64,000 bases of DNA from the NCBI GenBank assembly GCA_001794635.1, contig MGKE01000002.1, forward strand, positions 13,921-77,920, written 5' to 3'. This stretch comes from Candidatus Yanofskybacteria bacterium RIFCSPLOWO2_01_FULL_39_28. GTDB lineage: Bacteria; Patescibacteriota; Minisyncoccia; 2-02-FULL-40-12; GWA2-44-9. A program made the position numbers and the translations under genes. Shown here one piece after another: positions 11,140-56,726 of this stretch. How positions within the stretch are numbered: position 1 is the first letter of the stretch; each line of letters starts with the position of its first letter. The notes under the pieces were generated by a model. It ran no database searches and was not told the origin of the DNA. It worked only from the letters and a program-made list of their open reading frames with translations.

Positions 11140-11162
11140 CTCGTTGTCAAATAACTGATGTA

Positions 11163-11191
11163 TTTATACAAGATAATAATGCTCTAGTCAA
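11163..11191 (-). promoter_or_regulatory. Sigma70-like promoter for 9298..11139
   Basis: On the minus strand, TTGACT-N17-TATAAA lies about 25 nt upstream of GAGGTGGAA-ATG. Confidence 0.5.
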
Positions 11192-11205
11192 CCTGATTTT
11201 AAGGG

Positions 11206-11580
11206 CATGGTGTTAATCAAAATCCTCACAAGAGCTTGATTTCTGGGGCACGGCGTAAATTTCTGCTGAAATTTCGCCTTTTACTCGGTTCAGCCAACCT
11301 CCGTAAATCCCCATAAATCAACTCTTATGATGATTTTGTTTTCTGTTGTTAGTATAAATTCAGATAGTCGGCATAGCAGGTATTTTGAGGGATTTTTTAT
11401 TGGGTACAAATGAGTGAAGCCTTTGGCCTATGAGGGGATTTACGGACCGCGACGGCGGGAGTAAAAGATGAAATTTTAGCAAAAATTTACATCGTGCCCC
11501 TCATAGGCTAAGGCTGAACGATTTTATGTCGTGCCCGAAAAATACCTGCTATGCCGACTAGATGGTAATTAGCACCATAC
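11206..11580 (+). repeat. Foldback repeat element, copy 1 (candidate structured ncRNA or MITE)
   Basis: ORF-free. Positions 11209-11335 match 51494-51620 at 125 of 127 positions. Termini pair (GGTGTTAAT / ATTAGCACC), helices are nested, and the 3' half is a diverged inverted copy of the 5' half. Confidence 0.8.
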
Positions 11581-11607
11581 GTTTTTAAGAAACAATTTTT
11601 ATGGCTT

Positions 11608-12924: not shown

Positions 12925-14865
12925 GTGTCGGGATTAAAGACAAAGCTCAAAATATTATTTGGCATGCGTGATGATGGAGACATGACCGAACCAATGAATT
13001 TAATGCTTTTGTCATCGTTGGCTAAAAAGAACGGTTGTTTAACTGACATTTGGGTAATGGAGAGGGACGATCTAAGGGATACAATTCAAAAAATAAAACC
13101 AGATATTATTGCCTTTTCCGGCATTACCGGTTCGCATAAATATTATGTCCAGGCCGCTCATAACATTAAAGAAATTAATCCGAAAATCAAAGTTATTGTC
13201 GGTGGGCCTCATTTTACTTTTTTCCCGGGTGAGATTTTGAGGCATGAGTGCATAGATTTTTTGTGTGTTGGCGAGGGGGACGATGCTTGGGTAGAATGGA
13301 CTTTGGCCTTTGCTAATAACGGCGATACAAACAATATTCCCAACATTGTGAGCAAGGAAAATGCGCAAAGAGTTCTGACTAACCCTCAATCTGGCAACTT
13401 AATTCTAATCGGCGGTTTAAAGAATGAGGGTTTGAAATCTGTCGGCAATAGCGTTGGCATGGTGGATTATGTTCTAAATCCGGCATTTATGCGTGGAAGA
13501 AAAACTAATCTTGATGATTTACCGTTTCTGGACAGGGGACTGGTTTACGATAATACCGAATTCAAATATCGCTATAAACGCACCATTATGGCTTCTCGCG
13601 GCTGTCCTTTCCGGTGTACTTATTGTTTTGAGCATCAGTGGAATGAAATGTATCGCGGGGTTAAAAATTCAGGAAGTATCCGCCAATTATACGGCGTTGA
13701 TCGTTTGATTTCTGAACTTGAAGAATTTGTTGGACAATACGACACAAGATTTATTAAGTTTTATGACGATGTTTTTCCTCCGTTTCCTAATCCCGCAGAA
13801 AGGGAGTGGCATCAGCAGTTTTGCGAAGAATATCCAAAAAGGATAGGTCTTCCGTTCCACGTTTTAACTCGGTGTGATCTGGTTGTTAATCTTTTGGACA
13901 ATCACAAGTTGGATATTCTTAGAGATTGGAAAAAAGCGGGAATGGCTTCAGTTACGATGTCAATAGAATCCGGTAATCCGTTTATAAGAGATCATGTCAT
14001 TATTCGTGATATGACAGGAAATGATATCAATCGGGCGTTCAAACATGCTTGGGATGTTGGTCTGACCACTTTTCCCAACACCATTCTTGGTATTCCGGCC
14101 CCCCTCTTGCCTAAAGTTGATGACGCGCGTTTTGACGACAAAATGAGAGAAGTCGGTCGTCAGTGCAAGATTTTAAAAGAAATAAATCATCGCAAGATTG
14201 ATCTTCAAGAGGTTCAGAAAATTGCTGAACAGTGGTTTACCGACAAATACGAACGTCGCAGATATATTCTGAACTTTTTAAAATCCGTCGGTTTACGAGA
14301 AGATTTCAAGTCATACGACAGAGAATCCGTTAAGTTTACGTTGGCCCAGAGACCTGGCTTTCCTGAATTTCCTATTTTAGCCCCCTATCCTAAGACCAAG
14401 GCGACCGAATGGGCCATTGCCATAGGTGCTTTTGACGGTAATTTTGAGAAACTTCACGCCAGTTACCAAGAAGTGTCTTATCTTGATTGTTATGATGACG
14501 AATACAAAAAAGTGATGCATAATTTTGAGCTGTTGGGCAGTTTTTTGTCTCTTTTTGCCGGAAGCCGTAACCGCTTTATGCAATGGCTGAACCCATATAT
14601 GCAGATGCTATGTCTTAACTATCTGGCCGAAATCACCAATTCAAAAGCAGTCAGGTTCTATGGCTGGCTTTATACAACTTCCAAGGCCTACATGCATTTA
14701 ACCAGGATATATCCGATGAGATATAGCTCATGGGAAAAGTGGCGTTTTTTCAAACAAATGACAGGACTTGACTTCTGGAAGCAGTTTAAGGAGAGAAAAA
14801 AGACTAAAACAATTTTACGTTCAGAGCGGCCGGGCCAGACTCTTGGCGGTCCGCCATCTTTGTAG
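12925..14865 (+). CDS. Cobalamin-binding-domain (class B) radical SAM enzyme
   Basis: MASRGCPFRCTYC cluster motif after a B12-type domain (PDIIAFSGITGSHKYY...KVIVGGPHFTFFP). GTG start 7 nt after GAGGTG. Confidence 0.8.
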   Translation: MSGLKTKLKILFGMRDDGDMTEPMNLMLLSSLAKKNGCLTDIWVMERDDLRDTIQKIKPDIIAFSGITGSHKYYVQAAHNIKEINPKIKVIVGGPHFTFFPGEILRHECIDFLCVGEGDDAWVEWTLAFANNGDTNNIPNIVSKENAQRVLTNPQSGNLILIGGLKNEGLKSVGNSVGMVDYVLNPAFMRGRKTNLDDLPFLDRGLVYDNTEFKYRYKRTIMASRGCPFRCTYCFEHQWNEMYRGVKNSGSIRQLYGVDRLISELEEFVGQYDTRFIKFYDDVFPPFPNPAEREWHQQFCEEYPKRIGLPFHVLTRCDLVVNLLDNHKLDILRDWKKAGMASVTMSIESGNPFIRDHVIIRDMTGNDINRAFKHAWDVGLTTFPNTILGIPAPLLPKVDDARFDDKMREVGRQCKILKEINHRKIDLQEVQKIAEQWFTDKYERRRYILNFLKSVGLREDFKSYDRESVKFTLAQRPGFPEFPILAPYPKTKATEWAIAIGAFDGNFEKLHASYQEVSYLDCYDDEYKKVMHNFELLGSFLSLFAGSRNRFMQWLNPYMQMLCLNYLAEITNSKAVRFYGWLYTTSKAYMHLTRIYPMRYSSWEKWRFFKQMTGLDFWKQFKERKKTKTILRSERPGQTLGGPPSL

Positions 14866-36836: not shown

Positions 36837-37967
36837 ATGAGCACAAGAGTCGCCATTATAATCCCCACCATGAACCGCCCCGATTTTATATTGAGGCAGC
36901 TTAGATTTTACGAACTAATGAACAGTCCTCATCCGGTTTATTTATCTGATTCTAGTAATGAAGAAAACGCCAGTAAATTAAAAGATGGACTCAAGGAAAT
37001 TAAAAAATTTGATGTTATTTATCAATGGGTTCCTCCGGGGAGAGATAATCTCTATTTATTACTGCCTCTAGTAAAAGAAAAATACTGCATCCAGATGGGA
37101 GATGACGACATTATGATTCCAGAAACAATATCGGAGTGTGCCGACTTTCTTGAATCTCATCCTGGTTACTCAACTTGCTCAGGCAAACAAGTGAATATCC
37201 GTTTTCAGAAAGAGGATTACAATAAACCCTATGGTATTATTGAGCGTCAAACACAGCCATTGGGCAGATCGCTTGAGAACGATAATATGCTCGCAAGGAT
37301 TAAAGAATTCTGGCTTGACTTAACACTCGTTAATTCTAAGGTTTCTTTCAATAATATAGCTTTTATTTGTTTTGTGGTTAGAAGCGTTGAATTAGAAAAA
37401 TCAATTAGAAATATCACCAAGCATTTCTCTTTAACCGAACATATAATGGAGTTTTTATTAGTATCAATACTGGTGATTTCGGGAAAATTTAAAGTACTTG
37501 ATAAATTAATGTATGTAATGCAGGTAAGCGGTAATCGCTATCTTTTTGATTATGACGGCACTACCAGTAATTTTTTAGTATCGCCTGATTTTTATGAAAA
37601 ATGGAAAATTTGCGAAAAAGAATTTTCAGAATTTGTTCAAAAACAAGGAAAATCAGAAAAAGAAAGTTTAAAAATTGTGAAGTGGATCTTTGTCCTTTAT
37701 CTTACTCGTCATTTTCTTCAAGAAAGTGAAGATTGGGCCTCTTTAGGCCTGAAAATAGATCAACCTCAACCCAATCTTGCCGGGAAAACTATTCAGTCAA
37801 GACAAAGTCTGTTTAAAAAAGCAAGATCTTTTGCTTCACGCTCAAAGCTTCTTAGAAGATTGTATTATAAACATCATGTCTCAATTGACGTTACCAAACC
37901 GGAATCAAAATATTATAATGATTTCAAGCTAGTTAAAGACTTCTTAGAAAAAAACGCCAATGGCTAA
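36837..37967 (+). CDS. GT-A-like glycosyltransferase-domain protein, paralogue 2 of 3
   Basis: VAIIIPTMNRPDF and MGDDDIMIP. The C-terminal KPESKYYNDFKLVKDFLE is shared with the other paralogues. Confidence 0.6.
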   Translation: MSTRVAIIIPTMNRPDFILRQLRFYELMNSPHPVYLSDSSNEENASKLKDGLKEIKKFDVIYQWVPPGRDNLYLLLPLVKEKYCIQMGDDDIMIPETISECADFLESHPGYSTCSGKQVNIRFQKEDYNKPYGIIERQTQPLGRSLENDNMLARIKEFWLDLTLVNSKVSFNNIAFICFVVRSVELEKSIRNITKHFSLTEHIMEFLLVSILVISGKFKVLDKLMYVMQVSGNRYLFDYDGTTSNFLVSPDFYEKWKICEKEFSEFVQKQGKSEKESLKIVKWIFVLYLTRHFLQESEDWASLGLKIDQPQPNLAGKTIQSRQSLFKKARSFASRSKLLRRLYYKHHVSIDVTKPESKYYNDFKLVKDFLEKNANG

Positions 37968-39063
37968 AGTCGCTATTATAATTCCTACCATGAACCGTCC
38001 CGACTTTATGTTGAGGCAGCTTGAGTTTTATGAACTAATGAATAGCCCGCACCCGGTTTACATTTTAGACAGCAGCAATCCGGAGAATGCCGAAAAACTA
38101 AAGAACGGCGTAGAAAAATATAAAAATTTAAATGTAGTTTATAAATGGTTTCCACCCGGTAATGATTATGAATATCAACTATTGCCTCTGGTAAAAGAAA
38201 AGTATTGTATACAAATTGGAGACGATGATCTTATTTTCCCCAGTACGATTTCTGAGTGTGCAGATTTTTTAGAATCTTATCCCGATTATGCTACCTGCGC
38301 AGGTAAGCAGGTAAATGTTAGATTTAGAAAACATGATCGTATTAAACCCTACGGTATTATTGAGCATCAAACACGGCCATTAGGCAGATCGATTGAAGAT
38401 GAAAATATGCTTGTAAGGGCAAAAAACTTCTGGCTTGATCAGACTTTTCTCGGTCTTTCTGTTAGAAGGATTGAGACAGAAAGAGCGATCCGTAATATTA
38501 CGAAAAACTTTTTTATGATGGGTGATATGACAGAATTTTTGATAATGTCTGTTCTGATAACTTCCGGAAAATCTAAATCACTTGATAAATTAGGACAGGT
38601 TATGCAATTAAGCGACCTCCGATCTTTTGATCACGGCCTTGTTGAAGATTTTTTATTGTATTCGCATATCGTTGAAGAATGGAAAATTTGCCTAGATGGA
38701 TTTTCTGAAATTCTGACGGAAAAAGGATTATCAAAAAAAGAAAGCCAAGATGCTATTAAGGGTATATTCATTGTTTTTCTTTACCAACAATATACCACAG
38801 AAAGATTTTGGCTAGCCATTGGCAACAAAAAATCCTCATTTGCATGGCCTGACCAGTTAAAGCAAGATCTGTCAAATACTTTTTCAAAACAAGGGACGAA
38901 GGGATTATTTAAAAAGATTAGGCACAGGGCTTCTCATTTGCCATTTCTTAGAAGTATCTACTACAAATTTAACCCTCCTGATTATGTTGATAAACCAGAA
39001 TCAAAATACTTTGATGATTTCAAAGTAGTTAAGGACTTTCTGGAGGGAAGAGCTAATAAATAA
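37960..39063 (+). CDS. GT-A-like glycosyltransferase-domain protein, paralogue 3 of 3
   Basis: VAIIIPTMNRPDF and IGDDDLIFP. The 5' region is about 85% identical in nucleotide sequence to paralogue 2. There is an 8-nt overlap with paralogue 2. Confidence 0.6.
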   Translation: MAKVAIIIPTMNRPDFMLRQLEFYELMNSPHPVYILDSSNPENAEKLKNGVEKYKNLNVVYKWFPPGNDYEYQLLPLVKEKYCIQIGDDDLIFPSTISECADFLESYPDYATCAGKQVNVRFRKHDRIKPYGIIEHQTRPLGRSIEDENMLVRAKNFWLDQTFLGLSVRRIETERAIRNITKNFFMMGDMTEFLIMSVLITSGKSKSLDKLGQVMQLSDLRSFDHGLVEDFLLYSHIVEEWKICLDGFSEILTEKGLSKKESQDAIKGIFIVFLYQQYTTERFWLAIGNKKSSFAWPDQLKQDLSNTFSKQGTKGLFKKIRHRASHLPFLRSIYYKFNPPDYVDKPESKYFDDFKVVKDFLEGRANK

Positions 39064-45885: not shown

Positions 45886-46695
45886 TCAAATTTGCAAGTC
45901 TTTCAATTCTTTAAGCACTTCTTCAGCAATCTCAAGTGTGCTTTTATTAAAGCCAGTTGATACACTTCTAATTTTATCGGTGTTCATTCGGTGAACGTTA
46001 TGAATAAAACTGCCGAATTTTGGCTGACTGCCTAATGCTTCGGCGATTTCTCTCAGAGTGGCATTTTGTGTGGAACCGGCGTTAAATATTCCGGTGATGT
46101 TTTGGGTCAAAGCTAGTTCTATAAATTCTTTTATTTGAGACATACTAACAAGATTAAAACTAGATTCAGGGCTTAAGGTAAGGGGGCTTGGATCGTGGCA
46201 CAGGATTTTCATTATGTTAGTGGCTGGTCTTGTTGTAGGGCCGACTATTGAGACGCAACGTAGAATGAGTGGCGATTTGGAATTCTGGAGTACCACTTGT
46301 TCTGCTAATAACTTGAATAGTCCATAAAGATAATAGGTATGATGAACTGGGCAAGAGGTCTCTGGAAAATTTGGTACATCCGTTTCTTTACTTTCGCGAT
46401 ATGGGTCTGGATAAACTGCTGGCGATGAAATGTAAACGAATAAGCCGTGGGGGATTTGAGTTAATTGTTTCGTTAGCTCAATATTTGACTGGTAGTAAGG
46501 CCATAAGTCATTCGGCGGTATAACATTGCGGGTATCGGCGGCGCAGTGAACTATGGCATCGTAATAGTTTTGGCCATGACGATTTATTTCGTTTTTCAAG
46601 TTAGCCCGGTAAAAAGGCTTGCCTCGTAATCCACCCAGTAAATATTGGCCCAAACCGGATGATGTTCCGGTTACAAGGAACTTTGGTTTTGTCAT
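45886..46695 (-). CDS. NAD(P)-binding Rossmann protein (atypical extended SDR), paralogue A
   Basis: FLVTGTSSGLGQYL glycine-rich motif. About 60% identical to 47805..48596. Confidence 0.6.
   Translation of the reverse strand: MTKPKFLVTGTSSGLGQYLLGGLRGKPFYRANLKNEINRHGQNYYDAIVHCAADTRNVIPPNDLWPYYQSNIELTKQLTQIPHGLFVYISSPAVYPDPYRESKETDVPNFPETSCPVHHTYYLYGLFKLLAEQVVLQNSKSPLILRCVSIVGPTTRPATNIMKILCHDPSPLTLSPESSFNLVSMSQIKEFIELALTQNITGIFNAGSTQNATLREIAEALGSQPKFGSFIHNVHRMNTDKIRSVSTGFNKSTLEIAEEVLKELKDLQI
46082..46169. repeat. 88-bp tract identical to 48001..48088
   Basis: Base-by-base comparison found no differences across 88 bp, while the flanking paralogous sequence is clearly diverged. Confidence 0.85.
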
Positions 46696-46769
46696 CTGAA
46701 CCCTTTTTAAAGGAGCTTTGGTGTTTTTATAACATGGTTTTTTGGTTTAGGCAAATAAAAACCAGCATC

Positions 46770-47726
46770 TTATTGCGGGTTGTAATTTTGGCGATACCAG
46801 TCAATGGTTTTTAAGATTCCTTCGGTCAAACCAATGCGAGCTTTCCAATCAAGAAGTTTACGTGCTTTTTCAACATCTATGCTAATACGCGAGCCTATAG
46901 TCGGTTTTTCAAGATCGTATACGACTTTAATGTTTTTACCGAAGCAGGCGATTATGGTTTGTACCAATTCATTGACTGAATAGGTTCTTCCAAGACCAAC
47001 ATTAAATATCTCAAAGTTATTTTTTTGGAAATCAATAGCTTTTTTAATAAATTCAACCTGGTCATCAATATATAGTAAATCTCTAGTTTCGGTACCCGAT
47101 CCCCAAACAGTGATGTCGTGCTCTGCTTGCATTACTTTTACGATTGTAGCGGCAAGAACATGGCCGCGAGTTAAATCAAATTTATCATGCGGACCATAAA
47201 TATTCGTATGCCGTACGACGGTGTATTTGGTTGAACCTAAGCAGGCATAATAACAGCACTGTTCCTCTCCTGAAATCTTCATTTCCGCCGATCTGGCATA
47301 TGTCGGATGGATTCTTTTTATATCAATGCCGTCTTCGGTTAAAGGAGTGTCGCTTGAGGGATACATTATCGTACAACTCAGAAAAACAAAATGCCTTGCC
47401 TTATTGAGGTGGGCTGCCTCAATCAAATTAGAATTGATTAAGCCGTTTGCTTCAGCATTAGCTCTGGCGCTTTCTTCTTTGGAGAATACTCCTATACCGG
47501 AGATCTGGCCCGCAGCATTAATAATTATGTCCATGTCTTTTGTTGTTCGTAATGCTGTTTCCTCATTTTTTAAATCGGCTTGCACTATTCTGGAATTGGA
47601 AATCTGGGGTTTATTTTTCAAATAAGTTCCGTAAACCTCGTAATTGTTGAATGAACTAAAGTATTCAAATAAGTTGCGGCCAATAAATCCGCTTGCTCCG
47701 CAGATCATTATTCTGGTTTTTTTCAT
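46770..47726 (-). CDS. Fcl-family NAD(P)-dependent sugar epimerase/reductase
   Basis: IMICGASGFIGRNL, NIYGPHDKFDLTRGHVLAATI and TVWGSGTETRDLLYIDD. Confidence 0.7.
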   Translation of the reverse strand: MKKTRIMICGASGFIGRNLFEYFSSFNNYEVYGTYLKNKPQISNSRIVQADLKNEETALRTTKDMDIIINAAGQISGIGVFSKEESARANAEANGLINSNLIEAAHLNKARHFVFLSCTIMYPSSDTPLTEDGIDIKRIHPTYARSAEMKISGEEQCCYYACLGSTKYTVVRHTNIYGPHDKFDLTRGHVLAATIVKVMQAEHDITVWGSGTETRDLLYIDDQVEFIKKAIDFQKNNFEIFNVGLGRTYSVNELVQTIIACFGKNIKVVYDLEKPTIGSRISIDVEKARKLLDWKARIGLTEGILKTIDWYRQNYNPQ

Positions 47727-47763
47727 TTTGATGTCTTTTGTGATGTAAATGAACTTGGTAAAG

Positions 47764-47792
47764 ATGATAAACTAAAAAAAATCTTAAGTCAA
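47764..47792 (-). promoter_or_regulatory. Sigma70-like promoter for 46770..47726
   Basis: On the minus strand, TTGACT-N17-TATCAT. The leader contains AAGTTCATTTACA. Confidence 0.5.
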
Positions 47793-47818
47793 CAAAAAAG
47801 AGGCTTATACCTCTTTTG
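47793..47818 (-). terminator. Intrinsic terminator at the stop codon of 47805..48596
   Basis: On the minus strand, AAAAGAGG-TATAAG-CCTCTTTT is followed by TT. Confidence 0.6.
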
Positions 47819-48596
47819 TTGATAATCTTTCAGCTTCAATTTTTGCTATTTCAAGAGTGCTTTTGTTGAAATCTATAGAAATTTCTCTGATCTTTCTGGT
47901 ATCCATCTGGGGTACATTAAAGGTGAAATTACCGAATTTTGGTTGGCTACCCACGGCTTTGGCTATTTCTCCAAGTGTCGCGTTTTGGGTGGAACCGGCA
48001 TTAAATATTCCGGTGATGTTTTGGGTCAAAGCTAGTTCTATAAATTCTTTTATTTGAGACATACTAACAAGATTAAAACTAGATTCAGTGCTTAAGGTGA
48101 GTTGGGTTGGGTCATTTCGGAGTATTCTGGCAATGTTTGTCGGCCTGCTTGTCGGCCCGACAATTGTTACGCAGCGAAGAATCAGGGATGAGCGTGTGTT
48201 CTGGCTGACCATTTTTTCGGTTAGAAGTTTGAATAGTCCATAAAGTCCGTAGAGGGGCGGGTCGTGGGGCAGGGTAATAATATCGGATTCGGAATTTAAT
48301 CGGTACAGGTCAGGATATACAGCGGACGAAGAGATGAATACGAATAAGTGGTGAGGAATTTGGAGCAATTGTTTCGTAAGTTCTATGTGCGACTGATAAT
48401 ATGTCAATAATTCATCTGACGTGATACTGTTTCTGGCATCAGTTGCGCAATGGATAATACAATCATAGAAAGTATTTTTGTGGCGGACTATTTCCAGGGG
48501 ATCTATTCTTTGGAAAGGTACGGCTCCAAGCTCTTTGACCAAATAGCGGCCAAGGCCGGATGAAGTTCCAGAAATAAGAATTTTAGCCTTGTTCAT
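47805..48596 (-). CDS. NAD(P)-binding Rossmann protein (atypical extended SDR), paralogue B
   Basis: ILISGTSSGLGRYL. Shares the 88-bp identical tract with 45886..46695. Confidence 0.6.
   Translation of the reverse strand: MNKAKILISGTSSGLGRYLVKELGAVPFQRIDPLEIVRHKNTFYDCIIHCATDARNSITSDELLTYYQSHIELTKQLLQIPHHLFVFISSSAVYPDLYRLNSESDIITLPHDPPLYGLYGLFKLLTEKMVSQNTRSSLILRCVTIVGPTSRPTNIARILRNDPTQLTLSTESSFNLVSMSQIKEFIELALTQNITGIFNAGSTQNATLGEIAKAVGSQPKFGNFTFNVPQMDTRKIREISIDFNKSTLEIAKIEAERLSTKEV
48001..48088. repeat. 88-bp tract identical to 46082..46169
   Basis: See the partner feature at 46082..46169. The tract encodes SSFNLVSMSQIKEFIELALTQNITGIFNAG. Confidence 0.85.
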
Positions 48597-50456: not shown

Positions 50457-51412
50457 TATACATCCCCCTCTTCGGATAAAATTTGGCGGATTTTGTAATA
50501 ATGATTAATTGTTCTTTTTAATCCAGTTTCTAAGTCAGTTTTTGCTTTGAAGCCGAACTCAGTGGCATTAGTAATATCTAAAGATTGACGTAGTTGGCCG
50601 ACCGGTTTAGATGTATCCCAATTGATTGCGCCTTTGTATCCAAGGATTTGGCAGATTGTGTTGGCCAACTCTTTGATGGTCGTTTCTTTGCCAGTTCCTA
50701 TGTTAATTGGTTTTGTCTCATTGTAATTTTCAGTTGCCAGAACTACAGCTTCAGCTGCGTCTTCAACGTAAAGGAATTCGCGACTTGGCGTTCCATCGCC
50801 CCAGACATCTATGTTCTGGCTGTTGGTTTCAAGAGCGTTTACTATCTTAACGATAAGCGCTCCGGTTACATGGGACTTTGTCGGATCAAAGCTGTTTCCT
50901 GGGCCATATAAATTAGAAAGCATAAGGTGAACAGAATTAAAACCGTATTGTTTGCGGTAAGCTTCGCCTTGAACAATAAGCGCTCTTTTAGCTATGGCAT
51001 AAGGCGCATTTAATTCCTCCGGATAGCCATCCCAAAGACTTTGTTCTTTTAATGGCATTGGAGCGTTTTTGGGATATTCGCATATACTGCCAATTATTAC
51101 GAACTTTTTGACTCCGGCTTGGTAAGCAGCTTTCATAAGGTTTATTCCCATGGAAGCGTTATCGTCAAAAATTTCTGCTGAATGGGCAGGATTATGTCCT
51201 ATACCGTAACCATTAACGGCGCAATGTATAACGAAATCATGGTTTGGCATTATTTCTTGGCAAACCTCTAGGCGCCGCAGATCATTGTTTTTAGAACGGG
51301 GGATAGTGATATCTTTTTCCAAAACCCCATGTTTTATTAATCTGTTCTTCACGTGCTGGCCTAAAAATCCAGCTCCGCCGGTTAGTAAAACACGAGCACC
51401 GCTTATGCTCAT
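50456..51412 (-). CDS. GDP-L-fucose synthase / GDP-L-colitose synthase-like epimerase-reductase
   Basis: VLLTGGAGFLG, PYAIAKRAL, SNLYGPGNSFDPTKSHVTGALI and DVWGDGTPSREFLYVEDAA closely follow Fcl motifs. I chose the ATG at 51412 because the track start at 51514 runs into the foldback repeat and crosses the promoter. Confidence 0.75.
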   Translation of the reverse strand: MSISGARVLLTGGAGFLGQHVKNRLIKHGVLEKDITIPRSKNNDLRRLEVCQEIMPNHDFVIHCAVNGYGIGHNPAHSAEIFDDNASMGINLMKAAYQAGVKKFVIIGSICEYPKNAPMPLKEQSLWDGYPEELNAPYAIAKRALIVQGEAYRKQYGFNSVHLMLSNLYGPGNSFDPTKSHVTGALIVKIVNALETNSQNIDVWGDGTPSREFLYVEDAAEAVVLATENYNETKPINIGTGKETTIKELANTICQILGYKGAINWDTSKPVGQLRQSLDITNATEFGFKAKTDLETGLKRTINHYYKIRQILSEEGDV

Positions 51413-51449
51413 AACTAATCCCCTTCTATTTACAAAGAACCTTGGTGAA

Positions 51450-51477
51450 ATTATATATAAAAAACGTGATAAGTCAA
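51450..51477 (-). promoter_or_regulatory. Near-consensus sigma70 promoter for 50456..51412
   Basis: On the minus strand, TTGACT-N16-TATAAT lies about 37 nt upstream of GGGGATTAGTT-ATG. Confidence 0.6.
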
Positions 51478-51490
51478 CCGAATAATCGCG

Positions 51491-51784
51491 CGTGGTGCTA
51501 ATCAAAATCCTCACAAGAGCTTGATTTCTGGGGCACGGCGTAAATTTCTGCTGAAATTTCGCCTTTTACTCGGTTCAGCCAACCTCCGTAAATCCCCATA
51601 AATCAACTCTTATGAGGATTTAGTCTTTACCTGTGTCTATATCAATTAATCTGGTCAGTATAGTAGGTATTTTGAGGGATTTACGGACCGCGACGGCGGG
51701 AGTAAAAGACAAAATTCTAGCAAGAATTTATGTCGTGCCCGAAAAATACCTGCTATGCTGACCAGATGGTAATTAGCACTATAT
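51491..51784 (+). repeat. Foldback repeat element, copy 2 (candidate structured ncRNA or MITE)
   Basis: Positions 51494-51620 match 11209-11335 at 125 of 127 positions. Termini pair (GGTGCTAAT / ATTAGCACT). About 81 nt shorter than copy 1. Confidence 0.8.
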
Positions 51785-51798
51785 GCTACTATCAATTA

Positions 51799-51821
51799 AA
51801 AAGAGCCCAAAGGGCTCTTTT
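51799..51821. terminator. Bidirectional intrinsic terminator at the stop codon of 51820..52755
   Basis: AAAGAGCCC-AAA-GGGCTCTTT with T runs on both strands. Confidence 0.75.
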
Positions 51822-52755
51822 ATAAATTCGTATAGCTATTGTTCCTGACTATTCGATAGCCTTTAATAAGTTCTTCAATTCCTTCCTGTAGGGAAACTCG
51901 TGGTTTAAAACCCATTGCTTCAATCTTAGCATTGCTGACTATGTAATTTCGTTTATCGGGGTCTTCGCCAACCTCGGCCTCGGTAAAATAGAAGTCAGGC
52001 ACCTTCTTTTTTATTTCCTGACAGAGTTCTAGTTTGGATAAATTAGCATCGCTTAAGCCGACATTATAGGCGTTATTTTTCATAGAATCAAAATTGTTTA
52101 TACAATGCAGGAAGGCCCTTACAACGTCTCGGACATGAATATAGTTTCTCTTGAAATTAGCTTGAAACAACACAATAAAGCGATCATTAACTGCTCTATA
52201 TACAAAGTCGTTGACGAGAAGGTCTAGGCGCATTCTGGGGCTTATCCCAAATACAGTTGCCAGGCGCAAAGATATTGAATTACCACTGTTAAGAATTTCT
52301 TTTTCGGCCTCAACTTTCAAACGGCCATACAAAGATACTGGTTTTAATGGTGATTCTTCTGTGCAAAAAATACCTTCTTGGCCTATACCGTACCCGCTAT
52401 TCGTGTTAGGAAAAAGCAGGGGCTGATTTCTTGTTCTTGCGGTTAGAATAGTTTTGACCGGGTCAAGATTTATTGTTTTAGCTGCGAAGGGGTCTCTATC
52501 ACAAGCTGGAGCGCCGACTATACAGGCGAGATGAATAATAATGTCTGACTGCCTGACCAGACTTGCCAAAAGGTCTTTGTTTCTGACGTCTTCATTAATA
52601 ACTCTCAACGACTGACTATGGCAGCAGTCAAGCAATGTATTTTGTTTATACAGGAAATTGTCTAGAACAATAACTTCGTGGTTAGCCTGTAAAAGTGTCG
52701 GTACAAGAACGGATCCAATATAACCAGCTCCGCCAGTGACAAGAATTCTGGACAT
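51820..52755 (-). CDS. NAD-dependent sugar epimerase/dehydratase
   Basis: ILVTGGAGYIGSVL and YGRLK (YxxxK). TAATG overlap with the upstream dehydratase gene. Confidence 0.75.
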   Translation of the reverse strand: MSRILVTGGAGYIGSVLVPTLLQANHEVIVLDNFLYKQNTLLDCCHSQSLRVINEDVRNKDLLASLVRQSDIIIHLACIVGAPACDRDPFAAKTINLDPVKTILTARTRNQPLLFPNTNSGYGIGQEGIFCTEESPLKPVSLYGRLKVEAEKEILNSGNSISLRLATVFGISPRMRLDLLVNDFVYRAVNDRFIVLFQANFKRNYIHVRDVVRAFLHCINNFDSMKNNAYNVGLSDANLSKLELCQEIKKKVPDFYFTEAEVGEDPDKRNYIVSNAKIEAMGFKPRVSLQEGIEELIKGYRIVRNNSYTNL

Positions 52756-55099: not shown

Positions 55100-56042
55100 A
55101 AACTCCTTTATAAAGCTCTTCTGGTTCGGGATATGGCGCCGCTTTTGCTAAATCAACGGCTGTTTTTATTTGAGCCATTACTTCGTTTTCAACATCTTCA
55201 ACTTCTTTCTTAAAACCGGCTTCTATTAATTTCTGTTTCTGAATTTTAATAGGATCTTTTTTATACCATTCCAAAAATTCATTTTTATCGCGATAGTTGG
55301 AATTAAAATCCTCGTTAACGCCGACATGTTCCAAATATCTATAATATTTTAACGACAGGAAAACAGGACCCGATTCTAAGTATTTAATAGAAGACCTGGT
55401 GATATTGTGTATTTTTTCAACATCTGTTCCGTCATATTCTTGTATGTACTGGAACCGATATTGCCTCATGATATTTGTCAGATTTTTATATCCACGTCGT
55501 ATTGCAGTTGATGCATGGATTGCCAAACCATTATCTTCACAAACAAATATTACCGGCAGTTGCCAGAGACAGGCCATATTTACACTCTCCCAAAAAGCGC
55601 CTTCATCGGTTGCCCCATCGCCAAAAAATACAACATTAATCTTATCATCATCTAAAATTTTACTTGAGAAAGCTGCTCCCAGGGCAAGGGGAATACTTGT
55701 AGCAACTACAGCAGAGGTCATCATTACGCCCTTGTCCGGATTAGCCAGGTGCATTGAACCGGCTTTACCTCCGCCAGGGCCGGTAACTTTACCGTAAAGT
55801 TCAGCAAAAAACCCATTAACATCTTCGGTCCGGGCAAGATATATGGCATGGCTTCTATATGTACCCCAGACTTGGGCTTTGTCACCGATGGCGGTCAAAA
55901 CTCCGACAGCAATTGCTTCTTCGCCCATGGACATATGCATTGGCGTTTTCATTTCATCTTTAGGATACTCTCGGCAGATTTCTGCCTCAGCTTCCCTGAT
56001 AAGATACATTTTTTTGTAAAGGTTCAGAAGCAAATTCGGCAT
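55086..56042 (-). CDS. ThDP-dependent dehydrogenase E1 alpha subunit
   Basis: ThDP motif FGDGATDEGAFWESVNMACLWQLPVIFVCEDNGLAI. Overlaps the beta gene by 14 nt. Confidence 0.85.
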   Translation of the reverse strand: MPNLLLNLYKKMYLIREAEAEICREYPKDEMKTPMHMSMGEEAIAVGVLTAIGDKAQVWGTYRSHAIYLARTEDVNGFFAELYGKVTGPGGGKAGSMHLANPDKGVMMTSAVVATSIPLALGAAFSSKILDDDKINVVFFGDGATDEGAFWESVNMACLWQLPVIFVCEDNGLAIHASTAIRRGYKNLTNIMRQYRFQYIQEYDGTDVEKIHNITRSSIKYLESGPVFLSLKYYRYLEHVGVNEDFNSNYRDKNEFLEWYKKDPIKIQKQKLIEAGFKKEVEDVENEVMAQIKTAVDLAKAAPYPEPEELYKGVYDGE

Positions 56043-56087
56043 AATTAACCCCCTTTGCTTTTCTGATAGAATAGATAATTTTTTCGT

Positions 56088-56726
56088 TTATGTCAAAATT
56101 TTTAAGAGCTGCTGAAAATTTGTTGATATGTGATCAGGTTTTAATGAGGTAAGCAATTTTTTATTGTGGAAACCCCAAGTAACGGCTACTGTTTTAAGTC
56201 TAACTTTTTTAGCCGCTTTAATGTCTCCAACCGTATCAGTAACGAAGAAAGTTTTTTCAGGCGCAACATGATACTGGTTAAGAATCTCTTTTATCATAGC
56301 TTCTTTGGAATTGGTAGAATCAGCTAATATTAAGCCAAAACAACCTTCTATTCCGTTTTCTTTTAGAATATTCTTAATGTTTCCTTGTTTGCCGTAAGAG
56401 GCAATCGTCAGTATGTATTTTGCGCTTATTTTTTTAACAAATTCAGTAGTTTCGGGAAAAAGTTTAGCTTTTGTTTTTTTATCATAATAATATTTGTCGT
56501 AATTAGCGCTTCGGAATTCTTTGAAAATTAAATATGTTTCTTCGTTATTTATAAAATCCTTGAAGCCCTGGTGAACATTGCCAATAAAAAGTTTCCTGTA
56601 TTGATCAGGTTTAAAGGGCAGACCTATATGATTCATACTGTTTTTTATAAGCGGATAAAAAGTATCAAAAGTATCGGCCAAAACGCCATCAAAATCAAAA
56701 ATTATAAGATTTTTATTTTTCTTCAT
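56088..56726 (-). CDS. HAD-superfamily phosphatase
   Basis: LIIFDFDGVLADT (DxDxT motif I). I prefer the ATG at 56726 over the track start at 56774. Confidence 0.8.
   Translation of the reverse strand: MKKNKNLIIFDFDGVLADTFDTFYPLIKNSMNHIGLPFKPDQYRKLFIGNVHQGFKDFINNEETYLIFKEFRSANYDKYYYDKKTKAKLFPETTEFVKKISAKYILTIASYGKQGNIKNILKENGIEGCFGLILADSTNSKEAMIKEILNQYHVAPEKTFFVTDTVGDIKAAKKVRLKTVAVTWGFHNKKLLTSLKPDHISTNFQQLLKILT

Follow-up and report, generated by a model that had tools for sequence, protein, structure and literature searches.

What kind of sequence is a long foldback repeat that occurs twice, each time next to a promoter, in the genome of a candidate phyla radiation (CPR) bacterium? Genomes of this group are very small and tightly packed, and they are thought to be poor in repetitive DNA. 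The repeat in question lies in a 64,000-nucleotide stretch of contig MGKE01000002.1 from Candidatus Yanofskybacteria bacterium RIFCSPLOWO2_01_FULL_39_28 (positions 13,921 to 77,920; hereafter the window), and its two copies, which we call copy 1 and copy 2, are located upstream of a glycosyltransferase gene and a GDP-fucose synthetase gene, respectively (Table 1). A previous, sequence-only reading of the window had considered four roles for it: an independently transcribed antisense RNA, a transcriptional insulator, an upstream regulatory platform for the TTGACT promoters beside it, or a mobile foldback element with a preference for promoter-proximal sites. Our analysis indicates that the repeat is, in all likelihood, a non-coding mobile element of the kind termed a MITE, for miniature inverted-repeat transposable element. 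It is best described as a MITE family that is new and whose conserved core, a three-way junction, is unusual; the kind of element is known, and the family and its core appear to be undescribed.

The two copies share one orientation, as had been noticed, and are 96% identical over their first 138 nt, with approximately 80 additional nt within the 3′ domain of copy 1 relative to copy 2. Each consists of terminal inverted repeats (11-14 bp) and two hairpin modules, D1 (the 5′ domain) and D2 (the 3′ domain), whose 3′ ends face each other. In each module, a conserved 66-nt Y-shaped three-way junction, hereafter the core, caps a stem that is long and evolves fast. The core reads, in order, GGGCACG; hairpin 1 (11 bp, with one bulged T and the loop TGCT); C-TTTTACTC; hairpin 2 (4 bp); and TCCGTAAATCCC. 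The window holds four cores where chance predicts none, and a covariance model made from 39 distinct copies finds these four only. Both copies fold much more stably than shuffled sequences (z −10 to −14). Folding of copy 2 as RNA gives −130.2 kcal/mol for the plus strand (z −13.7) and −117.5 kcal/mol for the minus strand (z −9.7), folding as DNA gives z values of −11.8 and −12.6 on the two strands, all relative to shuffled sequences, and the terminal helix in the fold is 11 bp. We drew the ends of the element from homology with copies that bear target-site duplications. This refines the limits of copy 2, previously placed at 51491-51784, by a few nucleotides, and it corrects the gap to the −35 box from the 14-17 nt given before to 11-12 nt. 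The left end of copy 2, CGCGTGGTGCTAAT, is similar to the ends of copy 1 and to those of a relative at another locus, L037 (CGCGAGGCGTTA and CGCGTAGCGCTA; L numbers designate loci outside the window).

Orthologous loci, which the sequence-only reading had suggested comparing, lack the element at both of its window sites. At the copy 1 site, L073 has the same two glycosyltransferase genes, separated by 52 nt and without the element (the large glycosyltransferase is 67% identical to that of the window), and the TTGACT-N17-TATAAA promoter that had been reported beside copy 1 is not only present there but kept in four relatives without the element (L071-L074). A remnant of the element in L071 was considered and ruled out, as similarity in a global alignment begins only at the −35 box. 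The copy 2 site is empty in L075, L077, and L078, in which the GDP-fucose synthetase is 72%-74% and the upstream epimerase 66%-73% identical to its counterpart in the window. Here the epimerase stop codon is followed by a terminator hairpin, an AT-rich spacer of 13-40 nt, a promoter of the form TTGACT-N16/17-TATAAT or TAAAAT, and the GDP-fucose synthetase gene. Copy 2 itself had been described as wedged between a terminator and a near-consensus promoter, and we found both signals where they had been placed: the hairpin extends over the stop codon of the epimerase gene, which occupies 51820-52755 on the minus strand, and the promoter precedes a gene that starts at 51412 and is annotated in the source as a GDP-fucose synthetase. 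The hairpin is missing from the terminator-scan listing, yet an equivalent hairpin is kept in relatives; the copy 1 promoter does not appear in the consensus-scan listing because its second hexamer ends in A. Since relatives without the element retain the terminator and both promoters, these signals predate the insertion, and sequence comparison thus shows the terminator and both TTGACT promoters as ancestral and the element as a later arrival.

Members of the family elsewhere bear the marks that such an insertion would leave. In four independent members (L044, L045, L034, and L014; Table 1), perfect 8-bp target duplications immediately flank 12-16-bp inverted repeats that follow the pattern GTAYNWGCYCAC, and with one locus sampled twice this amounts to five configurations of duplication plus repeat, where displaced controls predict 0.2. 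The sequences duplicated are AT-rich. Copy 1 has a duplication that matches at 7 of 8 positions, copy 2 has none, and L037 is flanked by TTAAATTG and CTAAATTG; searches that allow one mismatch yield approximately 2.75 chance matches, so the duplications of copy 1 and L037 are weaker than the perfect ones. The GTTTTT that follows copy 1, formerly listed as a downstream signal, is real on the plus strand but belongs to the right target-site duplication, TTTTTAAG. Two types of terminal repeat occur in the family, GTAYNWGCYCAC and RYRTGGTGCTAAT, and two members, L046 and L037, are copies from which D1 has been deleted. Modules also nest within one another. In copy 1, domain 2 consists of an intact stem-plus-core placed inside hairpin 1 of a disrupted outer core; in L001 and L014 the nesting is three to four layers deep, and a single pair of inverted repeats with a single duplication encloses the whole L014 stack.

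Among contigs of the same population, six end inside the element and one carries a chimeric join. In L059:600-925 (contig k141_2125830, ERZ4903055), the D1 core of copy 2 is joined via a different stem to a nucleoside-diphosphate kinase gene, and this join replaces D2 and the epimerase gene. It reflects either recombination between the cores of different loci or an assembly chimera.

Prokaryotic MITEs are defined as elements of 50-800 bp with 10-15-bp inverted repeats, 2-10-bp duplications, and no transposase (PMC11602168). At 297 and 378 bp, the window copies fall within this size range, lack a transposase gene, and have inverted repeats of approximately 10-15 bp, and the family is found at multiple unrelated sites with filled and empty orthologous counterparts. 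Of the roles considered earlier, the mobile foldback element is the one supported, by the inverted repeats and 8-bp duplications of the family and by the empty sites of syntenic relatives. A transposase encoded elsewhere would cut AT-rich targets with an 8-bp stagger and move the element in trans. As comparison with relatives shows, copy 2 landed in the short AT-rich spacer between the epimerase terminator and an existing TTGACT-N16-TATAAT promoter, and copy 1 landed 12 nt upstream of the existing promoter of the glycosyltransferase gene.

With the promoters and the terminator ancestral, the common position of the two copies needs no regulatory explanation. Intergenic regions are very short throughout the window, and the element occupies every one longer than approximately 160 nt (11140-11607 and 51413-51819), which makes the spacer between a terminator and a promoter nearly the sole neutral target. 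Such a spacer may be among the few spots in a compact genome that tolerate an insertion, and AT-rich targets together with scarce neutral spacers probably suffice to explain where the copies lie. Some preference for promoter-like sites is also possible: 2-12 nt separate the ends of copies 1 and 2, L046, and L044 from a −35-like hexamer, a TTGACA hexamer is located 2 nt downstream of L044, and copies 1 and 2 and L046 have TCAACC in common 9-10 nt beyond the element end. The promoter-proximal preference proposed in the sequence-only reading finds support in these four copies but not in the family as a whole, in which the median distance of the core is 49 nt from the upstream stop codon and 171 nt from the downstream start codon. 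One member, 172 bp long (L034:4343-4514), is inserted only 10 nt ahead of the codon at which the next gene is predicted to start, a distance that places it inside the 5′ untranslated or ribosome-binding region rather than upstream of a promoter.

The shared TCAACC and the position of L044 could equally be cited in favor of a functional tie between the element and the adjacent TTGACT promoters, with the element as their regulatory platform or insulator, as could the fact that insertion exchanges the AT-rich stretch upstream of a −35 box for element sequence. We regard such a function as highly improbable, given that the target duplication of copy 1 does not include the −35 hexamer, that promoters with equal spacing exist in relatives without the element, and that most family members are not beside a promoter and are nearer to the upstream stop codon. 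For the first two of these reasons we also rejected the −35 box as a part of the element, and the idea of a platform becomes unnecessary. Any effect of the element on neighboring promoters would probably be incidental.

What distinguishes this family is its core. In both alignments, 91%-92% of cells are paired, 25-27 of 35 pairs have changed on both sides, and none of 500 shuffles matches the observed covariation; shifting the partners by one column lowers pairing to approximately 50%. G:U pairs make up only 5 of approximately 970 cells (~0.5%) in the three core helices, and pairs that differ on one side only are nearly absent. The junction nucleotides and the bulged T of hairpin 1 are highly conserved and conserved, respectively, and the enclosing stems, although wholly different between subfamilies, are each nonetheless complementary. 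The D1 stem class of copy 2 (gatttctg, core, cataaatc) is also found in L026 and L052, and stems related to that of D2 occur with compensatory changes in L046, L037, and L017. Within one element, the two cores differ in hairpin 1 (GGCG/CGCC versus GACA/TGTC) and in hairpin 2 (GGTT/AACC versus CCGC/GCGG). As the two cores carry different, individually compensated hairpins, each unit folds on itself and not with its partner. From these patterns we infer that base pairing in the core is under selection. Our best guess is that the core acts as folded single-stranded or extruded DNA that is recognized by the mobilizing enzyme or by a host protein; the near-absence of G:U pairs and a strand asymmetry in the stems point to DNA rather than RNA.

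This asymmetry resolves an earlier puzzle. Non-Watson-Crick positions had been reported in copy 2, two G.T in the terminal helix and two in the D2 stem on the plus strand, with one C.A in the D1 stem, and all are present; the two in the D2 stem are C.A on the minus strand and G.T on the plus. They had been taken to favor a plus-strand RNA, with the C.A position as a counterexample. Family-wide, isolated stem mismatches on the strand reading GGGCACG...CCGTAAATCCC are A.C in 27 cases and G.T in 6 (p = 3e-4), or 18 and 6 when collapsed to 25 stem families (p = 0.02). An excess of A.C on this strand means that the strand reading GGGATTTACGG...CGTGCCC pairs better, module by module, which in copy 2 makes the plus strand the better-paired one in the 3′ domain and the minus strand the better-paired one in the 5′ domain. 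The favored strand flips with the orientation of the module, which explains the C.A position; and as it is the individual core, and not the whole element, whose orientation the tolerated mismatches track, the wobble positions do not argue for a plus-strand antisense RNA.

A structured RNA could nonetheless be the primary function, whether as an independently transcribed antisense small RNA or as an element in 3′ untranslated or intergenic regions that stabilizes, terminates, or processes neighboring mRNAs and has spread because it is useful. The strong covariation in all variable helices and the highly conserved junction nucleotides would suit such an RNA, and a GGA/GA internal loop on the favored strand could form tandem G.A pairs. 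Single cores moreover run in the same direction as their flanking genes in 17 cases against 2 (p = 7e-4; many of the loci come from one genome, so the counts are partly non-independent), and the median of 49 nt past the upstream stop codon is where an element of the 3′ untranslated region would be expected. ERIC and Correia elements, which are known MITEs, can act at the RNA level (PMC2229807). Set against this, G:U pairs at the level seen here are unusually rare for an RNA, and there is no Rfam match to the element even at E values up to 10. Because the cores are co-oriented with the genes, their better-pairing strand is the neighbors' template strand and not that of the read-through mRNA, so the mismatch counts favor the antisense strand. 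The two modules of the window element favor opposite strands, so that no one transcript would contain both in the favored sense. Copy 2 also lies past a terminator and ahead of the next promoter, and relatives manage without the element. An RNA as the primary identity is accordingly unlikely in our estimation.

Covariation restricted to Watson-Crick pairs and mismatches that are asymmetric between strands would also be expected of a hairpin that is recognized on one DNA strand, as in REP/REPIN-like or IS200/IS605-derived elements, in which folded single-stranded DNA would be moved by a tyrosine (HUH-type) transposase that recognizes the Y-shaped hairpin. The transposase of IS608 recognizes a bulged T in its end hairpins, and a bulged T is conserved in hairpin 1; the modules nested in hairpin 1 suggest that hairpins are targeted. 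RAYT-mobilized REPINs, like the element, are inverted-hairpin doublets with many copies, compensatory changes, and no transposase of their own (PMC3116915, PMC3337134). The REP units of a REPIN, however, are short simple palindromes that pair with each other, whereas the units described here fold on themselves and come with target duplications. Elements moved in this manner have neither target duplications nor terminal inverted repeats, and both are present here; the core is a 66-nt three-way junction and not a simple palindrome of 20-40 nt with a GTAG-type head; and no such transposase, RAYT (Y1) included, was found beside any copy or in the 64-kb window. We judge this mode of movement distinctly unlikely, and on the grounds of the target duplications and inverted repeats we ruled out an identification of the element as a REPIN or an IS200/IS605 derivative.

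Several observations weigh against a simple MITE. No target-site duplication surrounds copy 2, which lies between AATAATCG and CTACTATC. The window yielded no transposase, recombinase, or tRNA (56 of its 57 open reading frames [ORFs] were compared to Pfam, the 57th, the GDP-fucose synthetase gene, having Pfam hits on record, and tRNAs were sought with ARAGORN), and neither the window nor the surroundings of any copy yielded an autonomous partner with the same ends, so the type of transposase can only be inferred. Subfamilies with different terminal repeats share the core, which a DDE-type transposase, the usual agent of cut-and-paste movement, should not need. Doublets are convergent in 9 of 9 cases. 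Random cut-and-paste predicts neither this nor the 17:2 co-orientation, so selection or a strand-specific process also acts, and simple cut-and-paste likewise predicts neither the nesting nor a core common to subfamilies with different ends. Finally, many loci derive from one genome or from related populations, and the counts are not fully independent.

The co-orientation, the convergent doublets, the nesting, and the shared core lead us to entertain, as a minority view, that the stem-plus-Y-core unit is an entity of its own. It may be a selfish, structure-specific module that inserts into hairpin loops, hairpin 1 of its own relatives among them, and is carried by MITEs whose ends differ; alternatively, it may be a functional motif spread by transposons, such as a protein-binding DNA or RNA junction or an unrecognized ribozyme, that is selected across CPR lineages. 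Either form would jointly explain why covariation is restricted to Watson-Crick pairs, why the strands are asymmetric, why the convergent arrangement of doublets is fixed, and why modules nest. A MITE remains the reading that we prefer for the repeat as a whole.

We scanned the core pattern against reference genomes, metagenomes, and viral contigs. It was found at 16 reference-genome loci, all in CPR (Patescibacteria) assemblies and 12 of them in one Yanofskybacteria genome, and at 42 metagenome loci; viral contigs gave no matches. Over these 58 CPR loci, the covariance model yields 74 matches, 73 of which score at least 68 bits and the last 34.5. The family is widespread in groundwater CPR bacteria. 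Its members are 172-320 bp long and contain no ORF, and almost no core overlaps an ORF of at least 100 aa, with three matches partly overlapping a predicted ORF. The genes beside the cores are ordinary housekeeping genes, including those for a LexA-like repressor, PheS, a methyltransferase, and permeases, and no ORF recurs beside them that might encode a protein traveling with the element. Two short contigs bear the deposited label "Saccharibacteria", which is perhaps unreliable; their genes are 49%-61% identical to Yanofskybacteria genes. A multi-copy family in CPR bacteria has practical consequences: it breaks metagenome assemblies, inflates intergenic regions, and could pass for regulatory RNA. 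Should the core turn out to serve as a recognition structure or as an active RNA, it would provide a first handle on the workings of mobile DNA in uncultured lineages.

Database searches did not identify the element as a known sequence. Rfam 15 gave no matches at gathering thresholds over the whole window, and with E values up to 10 the element and L001 drew only chance matches to microRNA-type hairpins. BLAST of the element against phage and plasmid collections returned no match, and literature searches by sequence string and topic found nothing relevant. We rejected TIGR-Tas guide arrays, which are found in CPR bacteria and consist of tandem arrays with a Tas gene, box C/D motifs, and dual spacers: the copies described here are scattered, with no recurring protein and no conserved box C/D motif. 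Nor do the variable stems appear to be guide sequences, as they match nothing else in the window. The GCTTCGC that flanks one stem class was considered as a target duplication and proved to be a conserved internal loop in nearly all such copies. A tRNA origin of the core was dismissed on the ARAGORN result, and an apparent 670-nt gap at 56042-56713 is occupied by an ORF.

Among known systems, the Correia elements of Neisseria (NEMIS) duplicate TA, whereas the target duplication here is 8 bp; the two were compared by description, and no sequence relationship is evident. The family also differs from Correia elements in its covarying Y-shaped core, its self-nesting, and its CPR hosts. Both are non-coding, bounded by inverted repeats, and present at many intergenic sites (PMC2229807). 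Correia elements are 100-160 bp long and, like the family described here, occur in size variants set apart by an internal block and have known empty sites; they carry putative promoters, and their transcripts fold into hairpins (PMC2229807). ERIC elements (also IRU) are likewise imperfect palindromes in intergenic positions, are approximately 127 bp long and conserved across genera, and have an effect that depends on their orientation relative to transcription (PMC2229807). They have no reported motif beyond their inverted repeats (PMC2229807), whereas the family described here has an internal three-way junction and clear 8-bp duplications. A further likeness, in shape only, is to sites that are recognized through structure. 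In integron attC sites, CTX-phage attP, and the T-shaped terminal repeats of parvoviruses, structure prevails over sequence, one strand is favored, and extrahelical bases or a Y- or T-shaped hairpin are used. Unlike these, the element comes without an integrase, a cassette array, or a replication gene, and its copies are scattered singly and have target duplications.

Table 1. Features of the two window copies and target duplications of other family members (positions are those of the window)
Feature	Position	Strand	Basis or remark
Copy 1, element	11204-11581 (378 bp)		Inverted repeats GGCATGGTGTTA and CGTATGGTGCTA match at 9/12
Copy 1, left target-site duplication, ATTTTAAG	11196-11203		
Copy 1, right target-site duplication, TTTTTAAG	11582-11589		7/8 identical to left ATTTTAAG
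Copy 1, core of domain 1, identical to D1 core of copy 2	11246-11311	+	Pattern and covariance model
Copy 1, intact inner core of domain 2, nested within disrupted outer core	11435-11499	-	101.2 bits
Copy 1, 5′ remnant of disrupted outer core of domain 2 (GGGCACGACATAAA, minus strand)	11523-11536	-	Comparison with copy 2
Copy 1, 3′ remnant of disrupted outer core of domain 2 (AAATCCC, minus strand)	11389-11395	-	
Promoter of 611-aa glycosyltransferase gene, TTGACT-N17-TATAAA	11163-11191	-	12 nt outside copy 1
Copy 2, complete non-coding element (probable MITE)	51489-51785 (297 bp)		Ends placed by homology to copy 1 and L037
Copy 2, left terminal inverted repeat, CGCGTGGTGCTAAT	51489-51502	+	Pairs with 51772-51785
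Copy 2, right terminal inverted repeat, CATATAGTGCTAAT on minus strand	51772-51785	-	
Copy 2, hairpin module D1 (5′ domain), ~25-bp imperfect stem around core	51505-51621	+	Fold
Copy 2, Y-shaped core of D1	51531-51596	+	Pattern match; covariance-model match, 96.8 bits at 51519-51608; covariation
Copy 2, hairpin module D2 (3′ domain), ~25-bp stem around core	51651-51765	-	
Copy 2, Y-shaped core of D2, inverted relative to D1	51676-51740	-	Pattern; covariance-model match, 94.8 bits at 51664-51752
Promoter of GDP-fucose synthetase gene, TTGACT-N16-TATAAT	51450-51477	-	Outside element by 11 nt; 11/12 consensus positions
Terminator-like hairpin of upstream epimerase gene	51799-51821	-	Outside element; −15.8 kcal/mol, z −4.0
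L044, target duplication AGGTTTTT			Inverted repeats 10/12
L045, target duplication TTTCTGTT			
L034, target duplication TATTCAGT			Inverted repeats 10/12
L014, target duplication AATTTGTC			Inverted repeats 10/12

A second conserved non-coding motif of approximately 110 nt was encountered at related CPR loci. It is found at L048:946-1055 (plus strand) and, on the minus strand, in L006 near 2502, L005 near 2565, and L046 near 103; L009, L013, and L020 have its 5′ piece only. The motif comprises CTGAAGCATTTGAGAC, a variable covarying hairpin, CGATAATAGSTGAGG, a second hairpin, and CCGGAGRCGTGCTGARG. Its ends could pair with tandem G.A, and Rfam gave no match to it. Core modules in reverse orientation take the place of its first hairpin in three Yanofskybacteria loci, and three elements lie 20-60 nt upstream of it.

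Two divergent tandem duplications are present in the window. The first (45926-46329 versus 47845-48245, 70%-77% identity) lies in two paralogous short epimerase-like genes (45886-48596, minus strand), and the second (36848-37147 versus 37968-38267, 71%) lies in two adjacent ORFs of 367-376 aa without a Pfam match. Most of the window is a glycan-biosynthesis island that encodes sugar-nucleotide epimerases, dehydratases, two NeuB-type nonulosonic-acid synthases, DegT-type aminotransferases, and several glycosyltransferases, along with six B12-binding radical SAM enzymes, two PhyH dioxygenases, and pentapeptide-repeat proteins.

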